Positions 1,444 through 17,606 of a stretch of 17,850 nt of DNA are shown here, one piece after another (within the stretch, counting starts at the first letter, position 1; each line of letters begins with the position of its first letter). The stretch comes from a virus. The notes beneath the pieces were generated by a model, which searched no databases, was not told where the DNA came from, and was given only the letters and a program-made list of their open reading frames with translations. The stretch lies in UHGV virus genome UHGV-0200089; one strand, written 5' to 3'. The position numbers and the translations under genes are program-made.

Positions 1444-1662
1444 TTACATCCACATAATTTGCTGCCCTGACGGCAACGGGTGCGGCCTTACGGCGTGGAC
1501 TTCTCCCGGCTTCACGATGTATCTCTGTACCGACTCATAGGTGATGAACGTGGCGCTGCAATTCACGTTCTGACACTGGTGATAACGCTCTTTTGTCGTG
1601 TCAGTGATATAGCGACTTGTACGCGCATGTGCGGCATGCTGGCATAAAGGACAATGAAACAT
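1444..1662 (-). CDS. ogr: Ogr-type zinc-finger late-gene transcription activator (72 aa)
   Basis: Internal ATG at 1662-1660 gives MFHCPLCQHAAHARTSRYITDTTKERYHQCQNVNCSATF..., with CxxC...CxxxxC zinc-finger spacing, matching P2 Ogr as recalled. The 28-aa N-terminal extension in the ORF track is judged spurious. Confidence 0.88.
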   Translation of the reverse strand: MFHCPLCQHAAHARTSRYITDTTKERYHQCQNVNCSATFITYESVQRYIVKPGEVHAVRPHPLPSGQQIMWM

Positions 1663-1742
1663 CGCGAGCACCTCTTCCGGTTTTGTTGATGGTGCCATTT
1701 TAGTTAATTTATCCTTATAAAACAAACAGATAAAATAAAACA

Positions 1743-2906
1743 TCACTCATCATCTTCTGTTTCGTACTCCACATCAGAAAGCCTGACCTCAAGCTCCAAG
1801 GACGTCGTGAAGCCGCTATTATTCAGAAAATGTGTCACCTTAGTGATTGTCCAGTCCTGCTCGTCTATGACGCGCTTAAAGCCTGACACTTTGACCGGCG
1901 TTTCCGTGTAAATATCTGCCCGACCAGTGGCAAGGCTGATGGAGAACTCCGCAACGCCCCGTTGCAGTTTGTCCCACTTCGCCTGAGCGGCGCGCATGGC
2001 CTGCGCTTTCGTGGCATATACCGTGGTCAGGGCAAAAACGTTGTCAGCCTCACCGGCCATGTATTCACCTTCGCGCGCTTCCGGTACTTTTGGCTCTTTC
2101 TTCTGCGTGACCGGTTTCGCTTTCGGGTGCTCCAGTGCGCGCAGGTGTTTCTCTTTCTTTTTGCGTTTCAGTTTTACCTTCTGCTTTTGCGGCTTCGGGT
2201 CTTTGGTGTGTAACCACTTTGCCGTAACGCCGGTATAGGCTCCACGGTCAGCAATCGCAAAATGATGACGGTCGCCGTCGCTGCGGGTGATGGTGACCTG
2301 CGGGATTTTTTTACCGCTGGCCGTCACCCCCTGCCCCGCTTTGAGAAACAACAGTTTTCCCATTTTTACCGACACCTCACCGCCGTTGCGTTCTGCAAGA
2401 CGGGTCAGGAATTTCGCATCAGACTCCTGCGACTGGTCGATGTGCGGGATTTTAATTCCGGCCAGTGACGGAGCGACACTGGCCTCCAGCCTGTTACGGG
2501 TGGCTATCGCCTCAACAATCGCACCGAGCGTGGTGTCATGCCAGGAGCCTTCCCGGCGGGAATTGAGCGTCCCGCGGAAATCTGCACTCCGGGCGCGGAT
2601 GGTGACCACATCCGGTGCGCCCCGGTGTTCAACCTCATCAACGGTAAATTTCCCTTTGCATACCAGGGCAAAACCTTTCCAGCCGATATACACCGTCAGG
2701 ACAGCGCCACGAATCGGTAGCCCGACCTGCCCGTCGGCGTCGTTCAGTTCAATATCAAGCTGGTCAGCCTCAAAGCCCCGGTTATCCGTCAGGGTCATGC
2801 TCATCAGACGGTCGCTGATATTGCCGGTAATATCCCTGCTGTCGAGCATCAGCATGTAATCCGGCGTCAGCGTACTGCCTGCATCAAATGTCAGTGCATC
2901 CAGCAT
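1743..2906 (-). CDS. D: P2 gpD-like tail protein (387 aa)
   Basis: Full-length ORF with near-identity to P2 D as recalled (MLDALTFDAGSTLTPDYMLMLDSRDITGNISDRLMSMTLTDNRGFEADQLDIELND...). Its ATG overlaps the U stop as TAATG. Confidence 0.92.
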   Translation of the reverse strand: MLDALTFDAGSTLTPDYMLMLDSRDITGNISDRLMSMTLTDNRGFEADQLDIELNDADGQVGLPIRGAVLTVYIGWKGFALVCKGKFTVDEVEHRGAPDVVTIRARSADFRGTLNSRREGSWHDTTLGAIVEAIATRNRLEASVAPSLAGIKIPHIDQSQESDAKFLTRLAERNGGEVSVKMGKLLFLKAGQGVTASGKKIPQVTITRSDGDRHHFAIADRGAYTGVTAKWLHTKDPKPQKQKVKLKRKKKEKHLRALEHPKAKPVTQKKEPKVPEAREGEYMAGEADNVFALTTVYATKAQAMRAAQAKWDKLQRGVAEFSISLATGRADIYTETPVKVSGFKRVIDEQDWTITKVTHFLNNSGFTTSLELEVRLSDVEYETEDDE

Positions 2907-3385
2907 TATCCCGCCCCCGTCATACCCGTGAATCTGGTCGCCATACTGCCAGCCTTACCGATAAGCGATTCCGCCTGTTTACCGATATCGCCATAAAGCG
3001 CGGCCAGTGATTCATCAACGCGGGTGAGTGACAGCGTAAAATCAATTTTTCGGGGTGTGCCGTCTGCAAAGAAAATACTCCCTGTTTCATTCACCCTGCT
3101 GATGACATACATGCCGTAAATCATGCCGGTGCCATCCAGCAACGGCCACGCCCGGCCTTCCTCTGCCATCAGCCTGAGCGTGGTCATCGTCAGCTTGCCG
3201 CCGGTCAGTTCGGGATAAAGCACGCCGGCAAGCGTGATGTTTTCCTCACCCACACCGAGAAACTGAAAGGCATCCCGTTTACCGATACGGGAATTTGACG
3301 GCCAGCGATAATCTGATTCACGCTGCATGGTCTGGTGTGGCAGCGTCTGGCGCATAAAAACAAACATACCTAACGCGAGCATCAT
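2906..3385 (-). CDS. U: P2 gpU-like tail protein (159 aa)
   Basis: ORF beginning MMLALGMFVFMRQ..., lying between the T remnant and D as in P2. AGGAGG RBS (complement of 3394-3399) sits upstream of the ATG. Confidence 0.88.
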   Translation of the reverse strand: MMLALGMFVFMRQTLPHQTMQRESDYRWPSNSRIGKRDAFQFLGVGEENITLAGVLYPELTGGKLTMTTLRLMAEEGRAWPLLDGTGMIYGMYVISRVNETGSIFFADGTPRKIDFTLSLTRVDESLAALYGDIGKQAESLIGKAGSMATRFTGMTGAG

Positions 3386-3399
3386 TTTTCGTCACCTCC

Positions 3400-3681
3400 T
3401 TAACCGTCATGCATCATGCTGGCACGAGCGCGCGCACGTTTATCCCGCTCGTATTTTTCGAGCGCATCCTGTAACTGGCGGTCAAGCTGTGTCCCCGGCG
3501 CAGTACCACCCGTCAGGCTGATGTGATATTCGTTTTTACTCTGGTCCACATAAGAGCGGCCAGCCGGTGCCGTGACCGGCTGATAAGCCTGATAGCCTGC
3601 ATAAGAGCTGGTCGCCGGAATATAACCACCGGTGCCATACGTGGCGGCATGAGTTCTGGCGGCGGTCTGGTCAAGTGTGTC
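3400..3681 (-). pseudogene. T: C-terminal remnant of P2 gpT-like tail tape-measure gene (about 93 codons; upper boundary approximate)
   Basis: The frame ends in TAA at 3402-3400 just upstream of the U RBS, in the position T occupies in P2. The protein-like tail is ...YGTGGYIPATSSYAGYQAYQPVTAPAGRSYVDQSKNEYHISLTGG...EKYERDKRARARASMMHDG. Upstream of ~3690 the same frame reads antisense through the P remnant. Confidence 0.5.
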
Positions 3682-3684
3682 TGA

Positions 3685-3996
3685 CTCTTTGTTGATGACC
3701 CCGAGCTTTTCCAGTACACGCCGGAAATGAAAACCGCAATGGTGCTCAAGGCAAAAGACGTTATTCGCCGTGGCTGTCTGGAATATGACGTCAGCGCCAC
3801 CGACATCACCAGCTCGTTTATGGCTATCCGCAAGACCATGACCAGCAGCGGACGCAGCGCCACCTATGAGGCCAGCCGCAGCGAGGAAGCCAGCCACGCC
3901 GACCTCGCCTGGGCGACCATGCACGCTCTGTTAAATGAGCCACTCACCGCCGGTATCAGCACCCCGCTGACATCCACCATTCTGGAGTTTTACTGA
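3685..3996 (+). pseudogene. P: C-terminal remnant of P2 gpP-like terminase large subunit (5' boundary approximate)
   Basis: The frame opens after TGA at 3682-3684 and ends in TGA at 3994-3996, overlapping the Q start as TGATG, which is the P-then-Q arrangement of P2. Only ~100 codons remain, against ~590 for a full-length P. Confidence 0.5.
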
Positions 3997-5030
3997 TGAG
4001 CAAGAAAAAAGGGAAAACACCGCAACCTGCGGCAAAAACAATGACCGCCAGCGCCCCGAAAATGGAGGCATTCACCTTTGGTGATCCGGTGCCGGTACTC
4101 GACCGCCGTGACATTCTGGATTATGTCGAGTGCATCAGTAACGGCAGATGGTATGAGCCACCAGTCAGCTTTACCGGTCTGGCAAAAAGCCTGCGTGCTG
4201 CCGTGCATCACAGCTCACCGATTTACGTCAAACGCAATATTCTGGCCTCGACATTTATCCCGCATCCGTGGCTTTCCCAGCAGGATTTCAGCCGCTTTGT
4301 GCTGGATTTTCTGGTGTTCGGTAATGCGTTTCTGGAAAAGCGTTACAGCCCCACCGGTAAGGTCATCAGACTGGAAACCTCACCGGCAAAATATACCCGC
4401 CGTGGCGTGGAGGAGGATGTTTACTGGTGGGTGCCGTCCTTCAACGAGCCGACAGCCTTCGCGCCCGGTTCCGTGTTTCACCTGCTGGAGCCCGATATTA
4501 ATCAGGAGCTGTACGGCCTGCCGGAATATCTCAGCGCCCTTAACTCTGCCTGGCTGAATGAGTCGGCCACGCTGTTCCGCCGCAAGTATTACGAAAACGG
4601 CGCACATGCCGGATACATCATGTACGTTACCGATGCCGTGCAGGATCGCAACGATATCGAAATGCTTCGCGAAAACATGGTTAAGTCGAAAGGCCGCAAT
4701 AACTTTAAAAATCTGTTTCTCTATGCCCCACAGGGGAAAGCCGACGGCATTAAAATTATCCCGCTCAGTGAAGTGGCAACGAAGGACGATTTTTTTAATA
4801 TCAAAAAAGCCAGCGCCGCTGACCTGCTGGACGCGCATCGCATCCCCTTTCAGTTGATGGGGGGCAAGCCGGAGAACGTCGGGTCGCTGGGTGATATTGA
4901 GAAAGTGGCAAAGGTCTTTGTCCGCAATGAGCTTATCCCGTTACAGGACAGGATCCGCGAGATAAACGGCTGGCTCGGTCAGGAGGTCATCCGATTTAAA
5001 AACTACTCACTGGACACTGACAACGGCTGA
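3996..5030 (+). CDS. Q: P2 gpQ-like capsid portal protein (344 aa)
   Basis: Near-identity to P2 Q as recalled (MSKKKGKTPQPAAKTMTAS...AFTFGDPVPVLDRRDILDYVECISNGRWYEPPVSFTGLAKSLRAAVHHSSPIYVKRN...). GGAG RBS at 3984-3987; followed by a terminator and cos. Confidence 0.92.
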   Translation: MSKKKGKTPQPAAKTMTASAPKMEAFTFGDPVPVLDRRDILDYVECISNGRWYEPPVSFTGLAKSLRAAVHHSSPIYVKRNILASTFIPHPWLSQQDFSRFVLDFLVFGNAFLEKRYSPTGKVIRLETSPAKYTRRGVEEDVYWWVPSFNEPTAFAPGSVFHLLEPDINQELYGLPEYLSALNSAWLNESATLFRRKYYENGAHAGYIMYVTDAVQDRNDIEMLRENMVKSKGRNNFKNLFLYAPQGKADGIKIIPLSEVATKDDFFNIKKASAADLLDAHRIPFQLMGGKPENVGSLGDIEKVAKVFVRNELIPLQDRIREINGWLGQEVIRFKNYSLDTDNG

Positions 5031-5033
5031 ACA

Positions 5034-5055
5034 TCGCCGCCTGCGGGCGGCTTTT
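5034..5055 (+). terminator. Rho-independent terminator after Q
   Basis: GCCGCC / GGCGGC 6-bp GC stem with TGCG loop, followed by CTTTTTT. Confidence 0.7.
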
Positions 5056-5199
5056 TTACACCCCGTCATCACCCCCTCACACGCTCACCACCGCACAAAA
5101 CACCCCGCAGACACACCAACGCCTCAACGGGCAGACTAAGCGCCGTCACGACGCGCTCAGACGCTGAAAAAATAAAATCCGCACCACCGCCAGCGCGCA

Positions 5200-5218
5200 G
5201 TGCTTTCCCCGCCTCGCC
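5200..5218. other. cos: P2-type cos site (19-nt cohesive-end sequence)
   Basis: GTGCTTTCCCCGCCTCGCC is the reverse complement of GGCGAGGCGGGGAAAGCAC, the P2 cohesive end as recalled. It lies in a C-rich tract directly after Q, where cos sits in P2. Confidence 0.65.
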
Positions 5219-5459
5219 CGCCCGCTTCATGGGGAGGTTTTAATGCAAACGCATCAGGAAGGGCAGACCTAGTCACATGTAGAATACGATAGCAATAAAA
5301 AAGTCTAATTAGAATGCAAATTGATGCAACTCTATGCCCTCCAAGAACTCCAAACCTGAAAGATTTATGTAAAACATAGTGTTCGTTTCACCAAAATACA
5401 TATAAACTACATTAAAATAGAAATTTGTCTCACCTATAAGCCATTTAGACAACAGATTA

Positions 5460-6623
5460 ATGAGGTTTGTATCACAAATGACCACAAACGAGATACTTTC
5501 GCAGCTTATCAGTCTTGGACTCAAAGGGGATAAAGTTGCTTTTGTTCGGCAGGCTTCGAAACTCGCGCGTTCCTATGATTCTATGGGGCTGCCTGAGCTT
5601 GCTTCAGCCATTAGAGGTAGTATTCAAGATAAAAACACGTTTAACTTGCAGAAAGTATCACGCAGTACATCACCTATTTTTGAACGTCTTGATACATTAC
5701 CTGTAGATAAAGAAACTAAATTTGATTTAGCAGACGTAACTCAACCGTCTTCTGAAATTCAACTCCCATTGTTGAAAGATAGCACTCTGAAAAAAATTAA
5801 AGAATTTTTGACTTTCACTGAACGAGCTAAAGAATTAAAGGATGCCGGTCTTGGCGTGACATCCTCTATGATTTTATATGGGCCACCAGGTTGTGGTAAA
5901 ACCTTGACATCAAAATATATTGCATCCTGTCTAAATTTACCGCTTCTTACTGCAAGATGTGACTCCTTAGTCTCATCATATCTGGGGTCTACTTCTAAAA
6001 ATATCAGGCAGCTATTTGAGTATGCAAGTAAAGCACCATGTGTTTTATTTCTAGATGAACTAGATTCTCTAGCAAAGGCTAGAGATGATCAGCATGAGTT
6101 AGGTGAACTGAAGAGGGTGGTGGTTTCTTTATTGCAAAATATTGACAATCTACCTGAAGAAACAATATTGATTGCTGCAAGTAATCATGAAAATCTTCTA
6201 GATAGCGCAGTTTGGAGGCGCTTTGAGTATAGAATATCTATTGGATTGCCTGATTTTGAAGTCAGAAAACAACTATTTGAACAATATTCAAACATAAAAG
6301 CTACATATGACGATTTTGTTGATGACCTTGCGGAAATATCATCAGGGCTAAACTGCTCATTTATAGAACAATGCTGCTTAAGATCTGAGCGACATGCTCT
6401 GGTTTACAATAATAAACAAATCGATACCCGATTTTTAGTCGAGGCTATCTTAGAAGCGAAGGGAGTTACATTTGATGAAGAAGATAATTTACTTATAAAG
6501 ATTGTGACCACTCTCAGAGAATACAATCCCAAAAGATTTACAATACGAAAGATAGCAAAAATACTAGGGCTTTCAAATGCTAAAGTGTCAAGGCTAACTA
6601 AGAACTATAGAGAGATATTATGA
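5460..6623 (+). CDS. AAA+ ATPase with C-terminal HTH-like segment (387 aa); cargo gene 1 of an IetAS-like pair
   Basis: Walker A 'GPPGCGKT', Walker B 'VLFLDELD', and a sensor/arginine region 'SNHENLLDSAVWRRFEYRISIGLPD'. The C-terminal 'FTIRKIAKILGLSNAKVSRLTKNY' looks like a helix-turn-helix. The stop overlaps the next gene's start as ATGA. Start could instead be ATG 5478, which has a GAGG ~12 nt upstream. Confidence 0.85.
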   Translation: MRFVSQMTTNEILSQLISLGLKGDKVAFVRQASKLARSYDSMGLPELASAIRGSIQDKNTFNLQKVSRSTSPIFERLDTLPVDKETKFDLADVTQPSSEIQLPLLKDSTLKKIKEFLTFTERAKELKDAGLGVTSSMILYGPPGCGKTLTSKYIASCLNLPLLTARCDSLVSSYLGSTSKNIRQLFEYASKAPCVLFLDELDSLAKARDDQHELGELKRVVVSLLQNIDNLPEETILIAASNHENLLDSAVWRRFEYRISIGLPDFEVRKQLFEQYSNIKATYDDFVDDLAEISSGLNCSFIEQCCLRSERHALVYNNKQIDTRFLVEAILEAKGVTFDEEDNLLIKIVTTLREYNPKRFTIRKIAKILGLSNAKVSRLTKNYREIL

Positions 6624-8884
6624 GTAACAAAGAAAGACCAATAAAAATAATTGAGGCGACACCTCAAGATTTTACTGAAAAAACATATAATTTCGGAAAG
6701 AAACAACCTATCCGAACAGTAACAACTAGTCTAAAAAATAGACTCAAACAAGAAGTCGATGACGTTAAAAATTTTTTCCAGAGCTCATTTAAAAAATGGC
6801 CCAATATACCGGCGGTGGCTAGAGTTACTCTTCATGAAAAAGCTCTTGCTAAGTCACATCGCCCATCAAGCCTATTAGGTGATAATACATGTCCCGTAAT
6901 AGGCAGTGATAATTTTGGAGAATTACTTATAAGTGTTACTGAAAAAGGGTTAGCACAACTTCGCAAAAAAATTGAAAATAGCACTAATTCTCATAATGGG
7001 ACAGTACATATTGCTGTAATTGAAAAGATCGAACCTTTTAGTCTTAACCATGATGTTATAGATAAAAATAAATCAGATAGTTTTCTTCTGAAACTCTTTG
7101 ACCATAAAGATAGAACAACTAACCGCAGTATCGACAAAGAATTAATGGAATTTGCAGATGAACTAGGAATACAAAAACCCAAAAAGTATGATATCAGTTC
7201 AGATTTGAGTATATATGAAGTAAAAGGGAATGATAACATCGCCCAACTGGCAAGTTTTATTGGCATACGAAAATTAGAACCTATGCCAACATTTGGTCTT
7301 ACTCATACAGTATCGCAATATATTCCTGCTGAAACTCTAGACCTAGATGATTTTCCCTTACCTCAAGAGGATAAACATTATCCACTACTCGGAATTATAG
7401 ATAGCGGAGTCGATCCCAATAACAACATACTTAGGCCATGGATTTGGGATAGTTTAGATTTAGTAAAAGGAGAACACGACTATTCTCATGGGAACATGGT
7501 TGCAAGTTTAGCAATTAATGGAAGATGGTTGAATAACTATGCTGGTTTTCCTCAATGCCAAGCTGAAATTGTTGATGTTGCAGCCTTTCCCAAAGATGGT
7601 ACGCTCAAATTGCCACAATTAATGAAAGCTATCCGAGAGGCTGTGACCACCTATCCAGAAGTACGTGTATGGAATCTGTCATTAGGTTGTCAATCCCCAT
7701 GTTCTGAAGACAGCTTCTCTGAATTGGGGCATTTTTTAAATGCACTTCATGATGAGCATGATTGTCTTTTCGTCGTAGCATCCGGCAACTACATTTATGA
7801 TCCTCAACGAACCTGGCCTCCTCAAGAATTAGGTGGGCATGACAGAATATCAGCCCCCGCAGATTCTGTTCGTTCATTAACTGTTGGCTCAGTTGCCCAT
7901 TTAGAATCGTCTGACTCTGTGGTCAAAAGATTTGAACCTTCATCTTTTTCTAGAAGAGGTCCCGGCCCAGCCTTTATACCCAAACCAGAGATAAATCACT
8001 TTGGAGGTAATTGTGACAGTAAATTAAACTGTGAACATACCGGAATCATAGCTATTGGCGAGGACAATGCTCTTTGCGAAAGTATTGGCACAAGTTTATC
8101 AGCACCGTTAATCTCAAGTTTAGCGGCATCACTGTGGCATGAACTAGATGTTAATGGTTCTATTTCACCATCGCCTGAACGTATCAAGGCACTATTAATT
8201 CATTCTGCGTTAAAAAACTCACCAGCCAAAACGGAGCATTATGCGTTTAATTATCAAGGATTTGGACGCCCAAGCGATCATATAAATGATATTATTGGTT
8301 GCAATAAAAATGAGATTACATTTCTATTTGAAATAGATACCCGAGAAGGTATTGAATTCAGTAGAACGCCATTTGTAATACCACAGTCATTACGTACTGA
8401 GGATGGAAAATTCACAGGTGAAATTATTATGACACTCGTTTATTCTCCACCGCTTGATTATGACTACCCATCTGAATATTGCCGTTCTAATGTGGATGTG
8501 TCATTCGGGACTTACACTTATGATCCAGTTAACGCTAAATGGATACATAGCGGAAAAATTCCACAAATAAAAGAAAAGAGTGAATTATTTGAAAAGGTAC
8601 TGATAGAAAATGGCTTCAAATGGTCTCCAGTCAAAGTTTATAGAAAACAATTTCCGCAAGGTATAAATGGGGAGCAATGGAGACTTAAACTTGATGTTCA
8701 GAGACGAGCAGAGCAAGAGCCTCTATCTTCACCTCAACGTGCTGTATTGGCTATTACGTTAAGATCTCTTGCCAATTCTACTACAGTCTACAACGAAGCC
8801 GAGGTTGAAATAAATAATCTTGGTTGGAAAGAAACTGATATTGTTGTTCGTGAACAACCAAAAATCAGGATTCGTCAAAAATAA
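6620..8884 (+). CDS. Subtilisin-like (S8) serine peptidase with N- and C-terminal extra domains (754 aa); cargo gene 2
   Basis: S8 catalytic motifs in canonical order: Asp 'LLGIIDSGVD', His 'DYSHGNMVASLA', oxyanion Asn 'FVVASGNY', Ser 'GTSLSAPLISS'. AT-rich coding sequence; translationally coupled to the ATPase. Confidence 0.85.
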   Translation: MSNKERPIKIIEATPQDFTEKTYNFGKKQPIRTVTTSLKNRLKQEVDDVKNFFQSSFKKWPNIPAVARVTLHEKALAKSHRPSSLLGDNTCPVIGSDNFGELLISVTEKGLAQLRKKIENSTNSHNGTVHIAVIEKIEPFSLNHDVIDKNKSDSFLLKLFDHKDRTTNRSIDKELMEFADELGIQKPKKYDISSDLSIYEVKGNDNIAQLASFIGIRKLEPMPTFGLTHTVSQYIPAETLDLDDFPLPQEDKHYPLLGIIDSGVDPNNNILRPWIWDSLDLVKGEHDYSHGNMVASLAINGRWLNNYAGFPQCQAEIVDVAAFPKDGTLKLPQLMKAIREAVTTYPEVRVWNLSLGCQSPCSEDSFSELGHFLNALHDEHDCLFVVASGNYIYDPQRTWPPQELGGHDRISAPADSVRSLTVGSVAHLESSDSVVKRFEPSSFSRRGPGPAFIPKPEINHFGGNCDSKLNCEHTGIIAIGEDNALCESIGTSLSAPLISSLAASLWHELDVNGSISPSPERIKALLIHSALKNSPAKTEHYAFNYQGFGRPSDHINDIIGCNKNEITFLFEIDTREGIEFSRTPFVIPQSLRTEDGKFTGEIIMTLVYSPPLDYDYPSEYCRSNVDVSFGTYTYDPVNAKWIHSGKIPQIKEKSELFEKVLIENGFKWSPVKVYRKQFPQGINGEQWRLKLDVQRRAEQEPLSSPQRAVLAITLRSLANSTTVYNEAEVEINNLGWKETDIVVREQPKIRIRQK

Positions 8885-8889
8885 GCATT

Positions 8890-8914
8890 ATGGTCACCTT
8901 TTATAGGTGACCAT
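8890..8914. terminator. Perfect 9-bp palindromic hairpin between the two convergent cargo operons
   Basis: ATGGTCACC ttttata GGTGACCAT, located between the S8 stop (8884) and the membrane-protein stop (8918). U-tracts are weak on both sides, so termination efficiency is uncertain. Confidence 0.5.
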
Positions 8915-8917
8915 TTA

Positions 8918-9679
8918 CTACACCTTATTATTTTCAACTATTTTATGAATATCCATATCAAACCAAGAAACTTGCGAAATTTCTTTTAGTGGAAAGATGA
9001 TACTAGTATCAGCATCCTCAAGCTCTCTATATTCATTCACCAAGATTACTTTCAATGAATCCTTATCTCTATACCCAGAGATAATAGGATAGATTGAAAC
9101 ATACTGGTTAGGTCCTTCTTTCTCGTTAGGCTCACCTAATGCGTTAACAATTCCTACATATGTCTTTTTATTTTGCAACGTAATAAGTATTGAACGTCTA
9201 TCAACTAACGAATCAAAAAATATTTCATCCATTGGATTATCATTAATAAGCTCTTGCCTCATCCTTAGCATGACAAGATTCTCATAATCAATATTGGCAG
9301 CCTTTACCCCTTGGATATAATTTATAATTTTAGCTCTATATATAACCAAATATCTAGCACCGACACTCCATATCCAAGCCAAAAATATCGTTCCACATGA
9401 AAGTAAAATCATCCATCCTATGATTCTTTCAGTACCATTGTCACTAAGTTTGAGATCTAATTGTTCCCGAACCATCGTGACAGGATGGAAGCTCGGACAT
9501 ATCCATTTTATTAAGTAAGCTATAATCAATGTCCATATAAAACACCACAGACCAAAGGCGGCTGACTTCATATATAACAACTGCCCATCATAACGGTGTA
9601 ATCTATAGAAATGATAAGGATGAGTGGTTAATACAATATAACCACTCACAAGTAATGGAATAATTAATAAAGCAAACAT
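8918..9679 (-). CDS. Uncharacterised membrane protein (253 aa), three predicted N-terminal TM helices plus a ~140-aa soluble C-terminal domain; cargo gene
   Basis: Hydrophobic segments FALLIIPLLVSGYIVLTT, AAFGLWCFIWTLIIAYLIKWI and IIGWMILLSCGTIFLAWIWSV. The ATG lies 2 nt after the upstream gene's TAA. AT-rich. No family recognised. Confidence 0.7.
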   Translation of the reverse strand: MFALLIIPLLVSGYIVLTTHPYHFYRLHRYDGQLLYMKSAAFGLWCFIWTLIIAYLIKWICPSFHPVTMVREQLDLKLSDNGTERIIGWMILLSCGTIFLAWIWSVGARYLVIYRAKIINYIQGVKAANIDYENLVMLRMRQELINDNPMDEIFFDSLVDRRSILITLQNKKTYVGIVNALGEPNEKEGPNQYVSIYPIISGYRDKDSLKVILVNEYRELEDADTSIIFPLKEISQVSWFDMDIHKIVENNKV

Positions 9680-9681
9680 TA

Positions 9682-9918
9682 TTAATTCCCTTTAGCCATT
9701 TTTTCTTCTTGCTTTACCTGCTCAGAAACTATTTTTCTTGCTTTAATTTTCATCAATTTTACTGTATCTGAGCTTGCCAAGTCTTCTTTAGACGTGATAA
9801 TCGCGCCTCGACCTACCACCTCAACAGTGTTTGTTCCAGATGCTTCAAGCCTCCTCGCCAGTTCTCTTTCCTTTTCAATAGCAGCTTTACCTATAATACG
9901 TTCAAATATATTCATCAT
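9682..9918 (-). CDS. Uncharacterised small charged protein (78 aa), first gene of the minus-strand cargo operon
   Basis: GGAGG RBS 4 nt upstream of the ATG (complement of 9916-9918). Lys/Glu-rich, predicted helical. Tightly coupled to the downstream membrane-protein gene. Confidence 0.6.
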   Translation of the reverse strand: MMNIFERIIGKAAIEKERELARRLEASGTNTVEVVGRGAIITSKEDLASSDTVKLMKIKARKIVSEQVKQEEKMAKGN

Positions 9919-10009
9919 TTAACCTCCACTTGATTGATGCCAAGATAGTAATCACCTCCTCACAATATCTTACCAACCTAACAACTAACAGAACACTGTG
10001 TATAAGTCC

Positions 10010-10037
10010 AGTATAGTTTAATTAATAAATTAGGCAA
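10010..10037 (-). promoter_or_regulatory. Candidate sigma70 promoter for the minus-strand cargo operon
   Basis: On the minus strand: TTGCCT, 16-nt spacer, TATACT, about 90 nt upstream of the 9918 start. Sequence-only prediction. Confidence 0.3.
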
Positions 10038-10226
10038 ATCTATCAAAATGGTATTTTGTTAAAAATTCAGCTAACTCTGAGGTTGGTAAAACAGTCCACC
10101 AGATGTATCGCTAAAGCACTTAGAAACCACTATAACCATCCTAAGTGTACCAGTCAGTCTGTTTGTCTAATCGCATCACTATGCTCGTTATTCTATCCCC
10201 CGCCAATCCTGAGCTGGCTGCGTTCT

Positions 10227-10433
10227 CTATCGTCTGCGTGGTGGCGGTGCAGCGCTGGGCTGACCGATATAGTTAAGCCATACGTAATTATCCCGGACTA
10301 TTTCGGCACACCCGACCAGCTCATCGGGCGTCAGATTTTCGTTGACCATAATCTGCTGTAGACGGTGAACAATGGCCATCAGCTTGATATTTTTAGTTTT
10401 ATGCTGCGGTATCTCGCCTGGTATTCTGTGCAT
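10227..10433 (-). CDS. Hypothetical small protein (68 aa) downstream of the ASCH-like gene
   Basis: ATG at 10433-10431 overlaps the upstream TAA as TAATG; the translation ...ENLTPDELVGCAEIVRDNYVWLNYIGQ... looks protein-like. It competes with an overlapping plus-strand ORF at 10056-10361. Confidence 0.3.
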   Translation of the reverse strand: MHRIPGEIPQHKTKNIKLMAIVHRLQQIMVNENLTPDELVGCAEIVRDNYVWLNYIGQPSAAPPPRRR

Positions 10434-10888
10434 TATCCAAGCCACCCGTTTTGCTGTGCACGCTCCACCTGTTCATCTGAATAGTTCCATATCCCATCCG
10501 CACCAACCACTGCCCCGCCAGACATCCCCGTCTCTGGTTCATACACAACAGCAAGGCCGAGCTGATGCATAATTTCATGATTAATTCTGAATACCAGACC
10601 ACGCTCACTAAGTTCTTTCCAGTTCACAAACTCATATGCGCCTGTATTAAGCAGCTCAATACTTAGCAAGACATAATCTTCCAGCCAGTCTGACAAGTCA
10701 GTAACATCTGTTATCCGGGCTTCAACCTTTCGCCCCGTATACACACCCTGCACCCATTCATGCAAAATCAACGTGTCCCCGCGCTCATAATTACGGTCAT
10801 TTTTCCGAAACTCTGCGCGTTTCTTTCCTTCCAGCACAAGGTCAAAATATTTTGCGTGCAGCTTTACCTCGTGAATTTTTGCCATCAT
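10433..10888 (-). CDS. ASCH/PUA-like domain protein (151 aa) in the P2 'orf91' position
   Basis: From the first ATG (10888-10886), which overlaps the gene A stop as ATGA: MMAKIHEVKLHAKYFDLVLEGKKRAEFRKNDRNYERGDTLILHEW... resembles the ASCH/DUF3850 fold signature. The C-terminal region contains 'INHEIMHQLG' (an HExxH). The track's longer GTG-initiated version is rejected. Confidence 0.72.
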   Translation of the reverse strand: MMAKIHEVKLHAKYFDLVLEGKKRAEFRKNDRNYERGDTLILHEWVQGVYTGRKVEARITDVTDLSDWLEDYVLLSIELLNTGAYEFVNWKELSERGLVFRINHEIMHQLGLAVVYEPETGMSGGAVVGADGIWNYSDEQVERAQQNGWLG

Positions 10889-13170
10889 TTCCACTCCATT
10901 ACTGTTGAGAATCCCGGCCACTCATCAGCGACCGGATACGTGAATTTTTTCCCGTCATAATTTACGGTCGCGCCACGCGCCAGCGCCTCAAGCTCCCATC
11001 GCTGCGGCCTGATACCGTTCTGAGCAAGGTCAACGCGGATACGGGTAATTTGCATTCTTTCCGACCGGGTCAGTCTGGCCGATGGTGCAATTTCATGTGG
11101 TTTTAACGGGCTTCCGTTTCTTTGCTGACGGTTTGGCGTTCTCAGGTCGTGTTTTAATGCACCCCTGAGCGCCCTCACGACCTCCGGTTCATTCCATTCA
11201 ATAACACCGTCATCAACCAGATTAAGCACTGCTGCGGCGTGCTCAGAAGGTGTGGGAGCCGGTAACGAAGTATCACCACCGGTGAGCTTTCCACAGTTAT
11301 TGACAGGACTCCGAGGCGCGGCGATGCCGCTTTTTAAAGTCAAAGGCTCAACGACCGGAACTTTCGGCACAATGCGCCAGTCCGTCGTTCTGGTGATATG
11401 AATATGACGCGCGCCGAGATGCGGCGCGTAAATGCCGACCACTCTCTCGACTTCTTCCTCGTATTCGTTAACGTCATCCGACGGGCTACGGGCGACCCTG
11501 ACAGTCTGACAATCGCGCGGGACATTTGCCCCGCCCTGCGCGCTGATATACAACGCAAAATCGCCACTGTCTGCGGCGGCGCGTGCAGCCTCCACGCGTT
11601 CGTCAAATTCATCAGCAATGCTGACGCCGCGAGGCAATTTACGTAGCTCACGGTAAGCTCCCATTGTCGGCAGGCCAACCGTTTTAAATTGCGGGATGCG
11701 CCACGTTGACGCCCATGCGGTAACAGCCGCCGCAGTATCTTTCAGCGGTCTGCCGGTATCGTTATCGAGCTGACCATCCAGTGCATAGCCGTCGATATTT
11801 TTTGAAATGTATTTCGCGATATATCCCGCAGCACCGCCCCGGTTAAGGTGTTTTGCCTGAAAACGGTTTCGCGCGGCTCCTCTTTCGTCGCCATCCTCTT
11901 TGAGCGCATAGCGGCGCATGATTTCGATAATCTGGTTACGCTGGCGTGGATTACAAAAAAGCATCATATGCCAGTGCGGCGTTCCGTCGTGGTGTGGCTC
12001 GACGACTCGCAAACCGTAGACCTGTAAATCATTATCCTTGAATGCCGTGCGCATCAGGCTCCAGATACGGCAGAGATAACGCTGCGCATCCTTTGGATTA
12101 AATGCCTCATCATTCCAGCCGTGATTAAGCTGGACGGTTTTATTTTCGCCTTTTCCAACCTGACGTGTCGGGTGATACTTTGACGGCGCGGTCAGCGTGA
12201 TAAACATCCCCACATCACCCTCTGAGGCGGCGTAACGCTCAATACCGGCAATGGTGTTCATCAGCTCCATCCGGCGAATTTCAGGATTAGAAATACTGCC
12301 CATCACCTTACTGATAAGGTCGATGCGCTCGCCGGTTTCCCTGTTTTCAAGGTCACACGATTTAAGAAATTCCAGATTTGCCTGGCGGCGCGCACGCACA
12401 TCACGAATGGCATGTTTACTGGCATAAGGTGAACGGTCTTTATTGACCTCCCCGACAGCTATCAGTAACGCCTCATGCCAGCGCATACGCTGGCCTTTAA
12501 GCTGATGAGTCCACCACTCATCGTTAAACAGACGGGCAATGGCAGAATATGCCTGCCTCGTGGTCATCTGCCCTTTACGGTATTTGTTCCAGTAGAGAGG
12601 GGAAATATTGAAAGCACGTGCAGCGCCAGCAACATGACCATAGAGGTGAGCCTGCGCCTCATCCGTAAACAGCGATTCTTTTTCGCCATGTGCATCCACC
12701 CAGGCATCGCTGAGTTCCTCATACATCATGAAAAGCTGCGATGAGATACGGGCAGCAAACTTTTTCAGCTCCTTGTCATTCATTCCCGGCAGGCGCGCAT
12801 AGTGGTCACGCTCTGCCAGAAACAGTAACGACGCGTCGGTGTTCATTTCATGGCGCTGATTCACACGCTCAATGCGCGGCCATAAACGACGCTGAAAAGT
12901 GGATGTGAGGAAATAAAACCCGTGCACCGGGCTTTTATTGCGCCGGATGTAGTCATAGCGTGAAGTAAACAGCGAGCGCAAAAAGTAAGGCAGGCGGTTA
13001 ATCGTGGATAAAACACCTTGCACCTGACGCATCTCGTCACGTGTAAGAGGTCTTTCGCGCCCGACAGCCTCGCGTGGCGCGTTCCATGCATAAGCACCGG
13101 TAAACGCCTTACCGGTGCCTGCGGCAAATGCTGACGGAGGGACAAAACGCCCGGAGGCTTTAACGGCCAT
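10885..13170 (-). CDS. A: P2 gpA-like rolling-circle replication initiation endonuclease (761 aa)
   Basis: From ATG 13170-13168 the protein begins MAVKASGRFVPPSAFAAGTGK... and carries the tyrosine motif 'YIAKYISKNIDGY'. Length and sequence match P2 A as recalled. The track's start at 13212 is a TTG extension. Confidence 0.92.
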   Translation of the reverse strand: MAVKASGRFVPPSAFAAGTGKAFTGAYAWNAPREAVGRERPLTRDEMRQVQGVLSTINRLPYFLRSLFTSRYDYIRRNKSPVHGFYFLTSTFQRRLWPRIERVNQRHEMNTDASLLFLAERDHYARLPGMNDKELKKFAARISSQLFMMYEELSDAWVDAHGEKESLFTDEAQAHLYGHVAGAARAFNISPLYWNKYRKGQMTTRQAYSAIARLFNDEWWTHQLKGQRMRWHEALLIAVGEVNKDRSPYASKHAIRDVRARRQANLEFLKSCDLENRETGERIDLISKVMGSISNPEIRRMELMNTIAGIERYAASEGDVGMFITLTAPSKYHPTRQVGKGENKTVQLNHGWNDEAFNPKDAQRYLCRIWSLMRTAFKDNDLQVYGLRVVEPHHDGTPHWHMMLFCNPRQRNQIIEIMRRYALKEDGDERGAARNRFQAKHLNRGGAAGYIAKYISKNIDGYALDGQLDNDTGRPLKDTAAAVTAWASTWRIPQFKTVGLPTMGAYRELRKLPRGVSIADEFDERVEAARAAADSGDFALYISAQGGANVPRDCQTVRVARSPSDDVNEYEEEVERVVGIYAPHLGARHIHITRTTDWRIVPKVPVVEPLTLKSGIAAPRSPVNNCGKLTGGDTSLPAPTPSEHAAAVLNLVDDGVIEWNEPEVVRALRGALKHDLRTPNRQQRNGSPLKPHEIAPSARLTRSERMQITRIRVDLAQNGIRPQRWELEALARGATVNYDGKKFTYPVADEWPGFSTVMEWK

Positions 13171-13435
13171 ATGAGCCAAAAGCCTCAGAACAACGCTTGC
13201 TGAGTTGCTCAACCTGCGCGTTTAAATCAGCAAAAGACTTTGCGCTTCCGGTCAGAATATCGTGATGCATCAGGCCGGAAACGAGCTGGCTTAATTTCGG
13301 GTAATAACCAACCACCGCCAGCCATTCCTGACCGGCGTTTTTACCGCTTTCCGCTCTCTTTTTCTCGTGGAGAATAAACTGAAAGCTGTCACTGGTAACG
13401 ACATAACGTTCGCCAATTTCGATACGAATACTCAT
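13160..13435 (-). CDS. Small early-operon protein (91 aa), P2 orf83 position
   Basis: ATG overlaps the upstream stop as ATGA; ends 8 nt before the gene A start. Assigned by synteny with P2. Confidence 0.7.
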   Translation of the reverse strand: MSIRIEIGERYVVTSDSFQFILHEKKRAESGKNAGQEWLAVVGYYPKLSQLVSGLMHHDILTGSAKSFADLNAQVEQLSKRCSEAFGSYGR

Positions 13436-15781: not shown

Positions 15782-16777
15782 ATGTCTATTAAAAAGCTCG
15801 ATGATGGTCGTTATGAAGTGGACGTCAGACCGCAGGGTGCAGATGGAAAACGTATCAGGCGGAAATTTAAAACTAAAGGTGAAGCTCAGGCATTCGAACG
15901 TCATGTACTGGTTAACTACCACAACAAAGAGTGGTTGGAGAAACCAGCCGACCGCCGAACTCTTACAGAGTTGTTAGGTAGATGGTGGATATATCACGGA
16001 AAATCACATGAGCGTGGAGATATTGAACGGGGGCGTTTAACGACAATAATCGCCAAATTTGCAGAAATGGGAGTGTCCAGAGCTGACCAGCTAACAAAGA
16101 AAACGATAACTGATTATCGCGTTGTAATGATGAACGATGGTCTAAAACCAGCCAGCGTAAATCGACATCTGGCAATAATGAGCGGGATGTTCACCAAGTT
16201 AATTGACGCCGGTGAATACCACTCCCACAACCCGTTCCGTGAGATTAAACGGTTACGTGAAGCTGTTACGGAAATGGCTTTTTTGTCCAGTGAAGAGATT
16301 ACGCGGCTGTTATCCATGCTTGATGGTGATGAATTAAATGCAACTCTGGTCTGCCTTTCTACTGGTGGACGCTGGAGTGAAGTGTCTAATTTAAAAGCTG
16401 AACACATCATTAACCAGATGGTTACGTTTATGAAAACTAAAAACGGAAAACGCAGGACAATTCCCGTTTCGCAGGACCTGATTAAACGGATCAAGACCAA
16501 AAATTCAGGCAGGCTTTTTAATGCCAGTTACTACAAAGTGCGTAACGCTCTCAGGGAAGTAAAACCCGATTTACCTGACGGACAAGCAGTACATGTTTTG
16601 AGGCATACATTTGCCACACATTTTATAATGAATGGAGGTAACATAATCACATTGCAGCGCATCCTGGGTCATTCTAACATTCAGCAAACTATGACCTACG
16701 CACACTTTGCACCGGATTTCTTACAAGATGCTGTGACTCTTAACCCGGTGTCAGGAATGTCCATAATGCGTCCATAA
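15782..16777 (+). CDS. int: Tyrosine integrase, P2 Int family (331 aa)
   Basis: MSIKKLDDGRYEVDVRPQGADGKRIRRKF... N-terminus and the C-terminal catalytic region '...HVLRHTFATHFIMNGGNIITLQRILGHSNIQQTMTYAHFAP...' (R, H-x-x-R, Y) are colinear with P2 Int as recalled. Sits next to attR. Confidence 0.93.
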   Translation: MSIKKLDDGRYEVDVRPQGADGKRIRRKFKTKGEAQAFERHVLVNYHNKEWLEKPADRRTLTELLGRWWIYHGKSHERGDIERGRLTTIIAKFAEMGVSRADQLTKKTITDYRVVMMNDGLKPASVNRHLAIMSGMFTKLIDAGEYHSHNPFREIKRLREAVTEMAFLSSEEITRLLSMLDGDELNATLVCLSTGGRWSEVSNLKAEHIINQMVTFMKTKNGKRRTIPVSQDLIKRIKTKNSGRLFNASYYKVRNALREVKPDLPDGQAVHVLRHTFATHFIMNGGNIITLQRILGHSNIQQTMTYAHFAPDFLQDAVTLNPVSGMSIMRP

Positions 16778-16808: not shown

Positions 16809-17606
16809 ATGAGTAATTTAACTAATTGTAATACAACAGAAAATACCGCTACGGCGGGGGCTACCAAGTCAGTTATTGGTCGCATTCACTCCTTTGAATC
16901 CTGTGGAACCGTAGACGGCCCAGGTATTCGCTTTATCACCTTTTTCCAGGGCTGCCTGATGCGCTGCCTGTATTGTCATAACCGCGACACCTGGGACACG
17001 CATGGCGGTAAAGAAGTTACCGTTGAAGATTTGATGAAGGAAGTGGTGACCTATCGCCACTTTATGAACGCTTCCGGCGGCGGCGTTACCGCATCCGGCG
17101 GTGAAGCAATCCTGCAAGCTGAGTTTGTTCGTGACTGGTTCCGCGCCTGCAAAAAAGAAGGCATTCATACCTGTCTGGACACCAACGGTTTTGTTCGTCG
17201 TTACGATCCGGTGATTGATGAACTGCTGGAAGTAACCGACCTGGTAATGCTCGATCTCAAACAGATGAACGACGAGATCCACCAAAATCTGGTTGGAGTT
17301 TCCAACCACCGCACGCTGGAGTTCGCTAAATATCTGGCGAACAAAAATGTGAAGGTGTGGATCCGCTACGTTGTTGTCCCAGGCTGGTCTGACGATGACG
17401 ATTCAGCGCATCGCCTCGGTGAATTTACCCGTGATATGGGCAACGTTGAGAAAATCGAGCTTCTCCCCTACCACGAGCTGGGCAAACACAAATGGGTGGC
17501 AATGGGTGAAGAGTACAAACTCGACGGTGTTAAACCACCGAAGAAAGAGACCATGGAACGCGTGAAAGGCATTCTTGAGCAGTACGGTCATAAGGTAATG
17601 TTCTAA
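16809..17606 (+). CDS. pflA: Pyruvate formate-lyase activating enzyme (radical SAM) with a prophage-derived 20-aa N-terminal extension replacing the native start
   Basis: From 16869 the translation is [40 protein letters not shown]..., i.e. E. coli PflA with the radical-SAM CxxxCxxC cluster. The only in-frame ATG upstream of the cluster is 16809, inside phage-arm sequence, with a weak GAAG RBS. Confidence 0.88.
16868..16880. repeat. attR core, direct repeat GTCAGTTATTGGT
   Basis: Identical to 1318-1330. It corresponds to codons 1-5 of native pflA, except that the native ATG is replaced by AAG here (A at 16866-16867). Confidence 0.8.

Follow-up and report, generated by a model that had tools for sequence, protein, structure and literature searches.

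The two-gene IetAS system is said to have been described by Yamamoto et al. in 2009 as a toxin-antitoxin pair of the plasmid pTiC58, and its anti-phage activity is reportedly to be credited to Gao et al. in 2020. It was first reported as a plasmid-stabilizing pair in which the protease is the toxin and the ATPase the antitoxin (as cited in PMC13069673), and its anti-phage mechanism is unknown (PMC13069673). The related ietHAS system depends on the active site of its protease, and cloning of an ietA mutant proved impossible (PMC13069673). IetAS of Bacillus cereus m1293 acts through abortive infection, and expression of the SPbeta gene yosG suffices for toxicity (bioRxiv 10.1101/2022.08.27.505566), while ietAS of Escherichia coli ECOR52, challenged with 29 phages, conferred limited protection by itself and acted synergistically with Zorya II (bioRxiv 10.1101/2022.08.21.504612). 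Here, we describe an ATPase gene (ietA) and a peptidase gene (ietS) in a 17,850-nucleotide stretch of the virus genome UHGV-0200089, which is referred to as the window and numbered from its first letter. We consider it very probable that the locus is a canonical two-gene IetAS, carried as cargo of the cos-proximal old/tin hotspot in a P2-like prophage.

The assignment is carried by full-length profile matches to IetA and IetS in adjacent, co-oriented genes, which is the arrangement that defines IetAS in PADLOC. The ATPase matched the IetA model PDLC02196 (E 9.1e-132, 438 bits, protein residues 9-382 against profile positions 3-370 of 374) and the peptidase matched the IetS model PDLC02197 (E 1.1e-273, 908 bits, residues 1-747 against positions 1-747 of 749). 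Three more IetA models and seven more IetS models also matched the respective proteins. With Pfam, the ATPase was recognized as AAA (E 1.1e-31) and the peptidase as Peptidase_S8, whereas PHROGs placed both products in full-length families of unknown function. PADLOC matches of the ATPase to TRIP13 (E 1e-14) and DolB (E 4e-4) were rejected as generic AAA+ similarity, given the E of 9e-132 for IetA. A first-pass annotation, made from the letters of the window, had proposed an IetAS-like defence pair in the old/tin hotspot and had named PADLOC and Pfam profiles as the check; these profiles returned the expected families and the proposal is upheld.

The location and the proteins have been tabulated before. 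The gpA-gpQ locus of P2, adjoining cos, is an anti-phage hotspot whose 18,150 occurrences fall into 1,650 gene arrangements (Rousset et al. 2022, PMC9122126). For this locus, Table S5A of the same study lists WP_000210436, WP_000066157, WP_000457800, and WP_021570510 together with a DUF3850 gene. In the part of Table S5B available to us, an AAA plus Peptidase_S8 pair is labelled 'ietAS (Gao et al, 2020)' at rank 7 with 400 occurrences (PMC9122126). The IetA of this labelled pair shares 34% identity with the one described here, and the N-terminal sequences of the present IetA and IetS have no match among the Table S5B entries listed. As far as those entries go, the support from this study is limited to the accessions listed at the locus and to an AAA plus S8 pair there that is labelled ietAS. 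Both ietAS and its occurrence at the P2 hotspot are thus already known, and the first-pass finding is correct but ordinary. Little is added for a system that is named, experimentally validated, and detected by PADLOC, with these exact accessions already on record at the P2 hotspot.

The ietA gene encodes a classic-clade AAA+ ATPase. The list of open reading frames gives 5460-6623 (+) and 387 amino acids, and the first-pass annotation placed the gene start at 5460. This start adds six codons relative to position 5478, the second ATG, where RefSeq and all aligned homologues begin, and 5478 is the more likely start. The intact Walker A, Walker B, and arginine-finger region that had been read from the translation were all found (GPPGCGKT, VLFLDELD, and WRRF), and the catalytic motifs are invariant across 10 IetA homologues. 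Among solved structures, the ATPase domain comes nearest to D2 domains of the unfoldases VAT, p97, and Cdc48 (E about 1e-50). The protein ends in a helix-turn-helix (HTH)-like tail. This tail, noted at first reading, is conserved, with the motif FTIRKIA..G.S..KVSR at the end of all 10 IetA proteins aligned, down to 33% identity; this alignment included the ietAS representative that Rousset et al. give for the hotspot of P2. The Pfam HTH matches are only sub-threshold (HTH_28 E 0.001, HTH_50 E 0.014, both under the gathering score). Rousset et al. label WP_000210436 as 'AAA/HTH_50' (PMC9122126).

The stop codon of ietA overlaps the start codon of ietS by 4 nt, in the ATGA at 6620-6623 within gagatattATGAgtaaca, in agreement with the translational coupling suggested earlier. 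IetS is a three-part protein, with an alpha/beta region before the S8 domain and a beta-sandwich after it. The complete S8 set of D, H, N, and S claimed at first reading is present as D261, H290, N390, and S492, and these residues are invariant in an alignment of 119 IetS homologues. The same alignment revealed invariant residues in the S8 core and in both flanks, namely A75, A77, K78, R81, and P82 in the N-terminal region and E619, Y620, N624, K667, W668, K672, W687, R696, and W736 in the C-terminal region. The 119 aligned homologues are about 720-766 amino acids long, with almost all of the best 120 at 740-766, and coverage of the query is 94-100%. The flanks had been noted as domains of unknown function; searched in isolation, the N-terminal (~250 amino acids) and C-terminal (~200 amino acids) regions matched no Pfam family, even at E up to 10. 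It had also been suggested that the additional domains, together with the HTH, might set this pair apart as a distinct variant. This idea is not sustained, as both flanks and the tail are conserved family-wide (in the 119 IetS proteins, and in IetA down to 33-43% identity). A sequence search of the PDB retrieved only generic subtilases (E about 5e-4) and ATPases of the Cdc48/VAT type but no structure of IetA or IetS, and nothing relevant came from searching the literature for structural studies of IetAS. The predicted structure of IetS has a pLDDT (predicted local distance difference test) score of 91.8. With a model of such high confidence, this E. coli allele should lend itself well to mechanistic studies of IetAS.

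As the first-pass annotation had stated, the pair is placed between cos and gene A; it lies downstream of the portal gene Q. The cos position is given by a 19-mer that we take to be the P2 cohesive end and that bounds the cargo hotspot on its left side. A composition scan showed that the guanine plus cytosine (GC) content falls from 63% to 34% at about position 5231, just beyond the 19-mer. The GC contents of ietA (36.9%) and ietS (37.5%) compare with 53-56% in genes D, U, Q, and A, which bears out the AT-richness relative to the phage backbone that had been remarked on. Variable cargo between A and Q, adjoining cos, in a P2-like prophage is what characterizes the P2 cos-proximal hotspot, and this is what was found. 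The region 5' of ietA presumably holds its promoter and operator.

The prophage itself is integrated between pflB (C-terminal part, 12-1124) and pflA (16809-17606). In the interval 1444-5030, the tail genes D and U and a tape-measure fragment are joined to the final ~280 bp of the terminase gene P (about 3715-3995), which is followed by the portal gene Q. Because the tail genes are fused to the end of terminase P and the portal gene, some 20 genes for capsid, lysis, and tail functions are missing, and the P2-like prophage of this window is defective. Among complete E. coli genomes, the deletion junction is covered only by NCTC9100, at 97.8% identity and in two pieces with extra DNA between them.

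Features of the ietAS locus and its surroundings in the window (motif positions in ietA follow the 381-amino-acid numbering)
Feature	Positions	Strand	Remarks
Tail gene D	1743-2906		
Tail gene U	2906-3385		
Tape-measure fragment	3400-3924		
Portal gene Q	3996-5030		phrog_68, E 6e-176
P2-type cos cohesive-end 19-mer (presumed)	5200-5218	-	GGCGAGGCGGGGAAAGCAC; exact match, shuffles expect 0
AT-rich region 5' of ietA	5231-5477	+	34% GC; from composition
ietA	5478-6623	+	classic-clade AAA+ ATPase, 381 amino acids, WP_000210436
Walker A (ietA)	5880-5903		GPPGCGKT
Pore-loop-like motif (ietA)	5976-5987		SYLG, at the pore loop 1 position
Walker B (ietA)	6042-6065		VLFLDELD
Arginine-finger region (ietA)	6213-6224		WRRF
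HTH-like tail (ietA)	6537-6602		
ietS	6620-8884	+	cytoplasmic S8 subtilisin-like peptidase, 754 amino acids, WP_000066157
IetS N-terminal alpha/beta region	6620-7369		residues 1-250
IetS S8 domain	7382-8266		residues 255-549; Pfam Peptidase_S8, E 6.7e-24
IetS catalytic D261	7400-7402		context IIDSG
IetS catalytic H290	7487-7489		context HGN
IetS catalytic N390	7787-7789		context SGN
IetS catalytic S492	8093-8095		context GTS
IetS C-terminal beta-sandwich			residues ~560-754
Perfect 10-bp hairpin	8890-8914		ATGGTCACCT-TTTAT-AGGTGACCAT; between the convergent stops of ietS and the 253-amino-acid protein gene
253-amino-acid protein gene	8918-9679	-	WP_000457800
78-amino-acid protein gene	9682-9918	-	WP_021570510; phrog_37504, function unknown
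Replication endonuclease gene A	10885-13212	-	
Integrase gene	15782-16777		abuts pflA

The distribution of the island was surveyed in bacterial genomes and in viral contigs. Of 5426 complete E. coli genomes, 12 carry an identical copy of the 4.77-kb island (5231-10000), in every case on the chromosome; in the two of these strains examined, DCE7 and ETEC4089, it lies in an intact P2-like prophage adjoining pflA. Three further genomes of the 5426 carry a copy of ~68% identity, and in the one examined this copy is located within a Rac-like lambdoid prophage, between ydaV and hok. IetA is directly upstream of IetS wherever the contig has room among 42 IMG/VR viral loci, in which IetS identity ranges from 25 to 100%. 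The order of A followed by S was seen in 38 IMG/VR loci and in all bacterial loci examined (L002-L025), distant relatives included. The island DNA had no match in deposited phage genomes, and a protein search of deposited phages returned only two distant IetS relatives (28-32% identity). Because of the scarce identical and ~68% identical copies, the differing elements that carry them, and the IetA-IetS pairing in viral contigs, ietAS is a mobile, patchy, horizontally acquired module and not a housekeeping protease. A PADLOC survey found ietAS in 35 porcine enterotoxigenic E. coli (ETEC) strains of one phylogroup A clade (PMC11267873), which agrees with the pig ETEC genomes among our identical-island matches.

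Comparison with the described systems places the locus closest to IetAS as named in PADLOC (IteA/IteS in NCBIfam). The shared features are adjacent co-oriented genes, an AAA+ ATPase of about 370-390 amino acids with a C-terminal HTH-like tail, and an S8 peptidase of about 750 amino acids with the three-part architecture and intact catalytic residues. The present locus differs in its sub-equivalog scores, in the low identity of its IetA to the Rousset representative, and in a convergent two-gene neighbour. The B. cereus m1293 system bears the same name and illustrates the family role, namely abortive infection with a single phage protein as trigger; however, its donor and host are Gram-positive and its trigger, yosG of SPbeta, has no known relevance to coliphages. 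The ietHAS system (Liu-DS4; PMC13069673) shares the IetA and IetS modules, and the protease requirement is known for ietHAS, but it contains an additional, essential SNF2-family helicase gene. No helicase gene lies in or adjoins 5231-10000; the island was inspected for an SNF2-type open reading frame that would allow an ietHAS assignment, and its only other genes encode the 253- and 78-amino-acid proteins. The old and tin genes of P2 occupy the same site, with gpA on one side and cos/gpQ on the other, and are likewise exclusion cargo of a prophage, but their proteins are unrelated to IetA and IetS and include no protease. Old is an ATPase-TOPRIM nuclease, and Tin targets the single-stranded-DNA-binding protein of T-even phages.

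A working model can be put forward for this locus. The family, the intact catalytic motifs, the unfoldase-type ATPase, the HTH-like tail, the coupling, and the mobile carriage are features of the locus itself. What is carried over from other IetAS members is the toxin-antitoxin behaviour, the abortive infection, the phage protein as trigger, and the protease requirement. In the uninfected cell, an IetA hexamer with ATP would restrain IetS by binding, remodelling, or unfolding it, and the HTH tail of IetA would probably autoregulate the operon, as is common for antitoxins. A phage product or a consequence of infection would then disable or divert IetA, and the freed IetS could cleave essential host or phage proteins. 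The infected cell would arrest before the release of progeny, which would protect the lysogen population and the prophage.

Several observations weigh against a canonical IetAS with a defence role at this locus. First, both proteins align end to end with the NCBIfam models and yet fall short of the equivalog cut-offs, with 387.3 bits against 510 for IteA_antiphage (NF042959; aligned 8-367 of 367) and 782.4 bits against 900 for IteS_antiphage (NF042956; aligned 2-744 of 747). By this yardstick, the locus ranks as a diverged subfamily relative to the NCBI seed, and the low scores account for the unspecific labels that the proteins have in RefSeq ('AAA family ATPase' and 'S8 family peptidase'). 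The cut-off is that of one narrow model and is outside the published definition of IetAS. Second, a scan of 5000-10100 for consensus promoters gave 18 sites against 18.0 expected in shuffles, with none within 5231-5477; as the scan is at shuffle level and this region is empty, no promoter can be claimed. Third, the steps of the model are inferred, with neither trigger nor substrates legible in the locus, and the toxin-antitoxin or defence role of this allele would follow from the behaviour of other IetAS members only. One of these members, ECOR52 ietAS, protects to a limited extent on its own. Fourth, the prophage is defective here, such that selection may act on the host and not on the phage. 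Finally, the neighbouring genes for the 78- and 253-amino-acid proteins are invariably linked to ietAS among close relatives, and the functional unit may therefore exceed two genes in this enterobacterial clade.

These two genes form a pair, in which the 78-amino-acid protein gene is first and directly upstream of the co-oriented gene for the 253-amino-acid protein. The latter is a membrane protein that has three hydrophobic segments and a C-terminal Sm/Hfq/WYL-like beta-barrel on the cytoplasmic side. Neither protein has a match in PADLOC, Pfam, or NCBIfam, and the pair is outside the published definition of IetAS. The hairpin that separates ietS from the pair is a candidate bidirectional terminator. 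One could propose that the functional unit here is a four-gene cassette, in which ietA-ietS works with the convergent pair as a membrane effector, sensor, or regulator. We regard this as unlikely, although the linkage behind it is strict. The two genes are co-conserved in all loci carrying the block, and the pair is found in the same convergent layout in every locus with an IetS at least about 60% identical, including 7 of 7 such IMG/VR loci. These linked loci span unrelated mobile elements, comprising E. coli and Yersinia P2-like hotspots, a Rac-like prophage, Providencia and Salmonella/Citrobacter integrase islands, an Enterobacter chromosome, and metagenomic contigs. Moreover, all four proteins diverge in parallel (e.g., 69/77/77/63% and 55/60/56/54% identity).

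However, the pair is missing at an IetS identity of 51% or less: it was found in 0 of 35 IMG/VR loci with IetS at or below 43% identity and at none of the IetAS loci of 42-51% identity (L002, L005, L019, and L024). Homologues of the pair (33-48% identity) also occur without IetAS, adjoining prophage integrases in many E. coli genomes. Homologues of the 253-amino-acid protein are encoded by isolated temperate phages, namely phiES15 of Cronobacter and two that infect Pseudomonas, and no IetS match was obtained in any of these. One E. coli prophage without IetAS matches the pair region very weakly (coverage 13%, nucleotide identity about 70%). In addition, IetAS was defined and validated as a two-gene system (PMC13069673; bioRxiv 10.1101/2022.08.27.505566). 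The co-inheritance of two adjacent systems as one block would yield the same pattern, and two modules inherited as a single block is the simplest reading. Alternatively, the pair could be an exclusion module of prophages in its own right, so far undescribed, for which IetAS is a fellow traveller. In the available part of Table S5B, the pair is entered as a separate system, number 57, with 75 occurrences (PMC9122126). The clade-specific linkage of the four genes may be the only new element at this locus, and it is not mentioned in the papers cited here. A strict linkage to a membrane Sm-like gene pair could signal an accessory module, or else one more defence system carried by prophages.

Returning to the two-gene IetAS, its role may be questioned in that ietAS could serve mainly as an addiction module, acting through post-segregational killing as first described for the Ti plasmid pTiC58, with defence being incidental or absent. 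The plasmid-stabilizing role in which IetAS was first reported (as cited in PMC13069673) and the limited protection by ECOR52 ietAS alone (bioRxiv 10.1101/2022.08.21.504612) are in keeping with this, as is the invariable location of the block on mobile elements, some of which also carry RepB/ParB genes. Nevertheless, we find it improbable as the main role, since the hotspot is enriched in validated defence systems (PMC9122126) and other IetAS members stop phages via abortive infection (bioRxiv 10.1101/2022.08.27.505566). The retention of ietAS in a deleted, non-inducible prophage is explicable by either role, and the two roles are compatible and not exclusive. Lastly, the resemblance of the AAA+ domain to the Cdc48, FtsH, and PAN unfoldases might point to a housekeeping role for the AAA+ protease pair, in a genomic context that is conserved and non-mobile. 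This reading is scarcely credible and effectively refuted by the distribution data, as just 12-16 of the 5426 complete E. coli genomes have the genes, and these invariably lie in prophages or islands whose neighbouring genes differ. Their base composition is foreign to the backbone, and their best profile matches are defence-specific.

Two further sets of neighbouring genes were recorded. At the metagenomic loci L019-L021, where IetS is 51% identical, the neighbours are convergent genes for 57- and 216-amino-acid proteins, and the 216-amino-acid protein has a hydrophobic N-terminus that is signal-peptide-like by eye. The 216-amino-acid neighbour in L019 was considered as a homologue of the 253-amino-acid protein and ruled out (hhalign probability 0.9%). 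In the window, a DUF3850/ASCH-like gene (RefSeq 10433-10885) and a gene for a 68-amino-acid hypothetical protein (10227-10433) occupy 10227-10921 (-), between the AT-rich cargo and gene A. Their GC content is intermediate (43-47%), they recur across many P2 hotspot arrangements (Rousset Table S5A), and they look like semi-conserved backbone as opposed to cargo.

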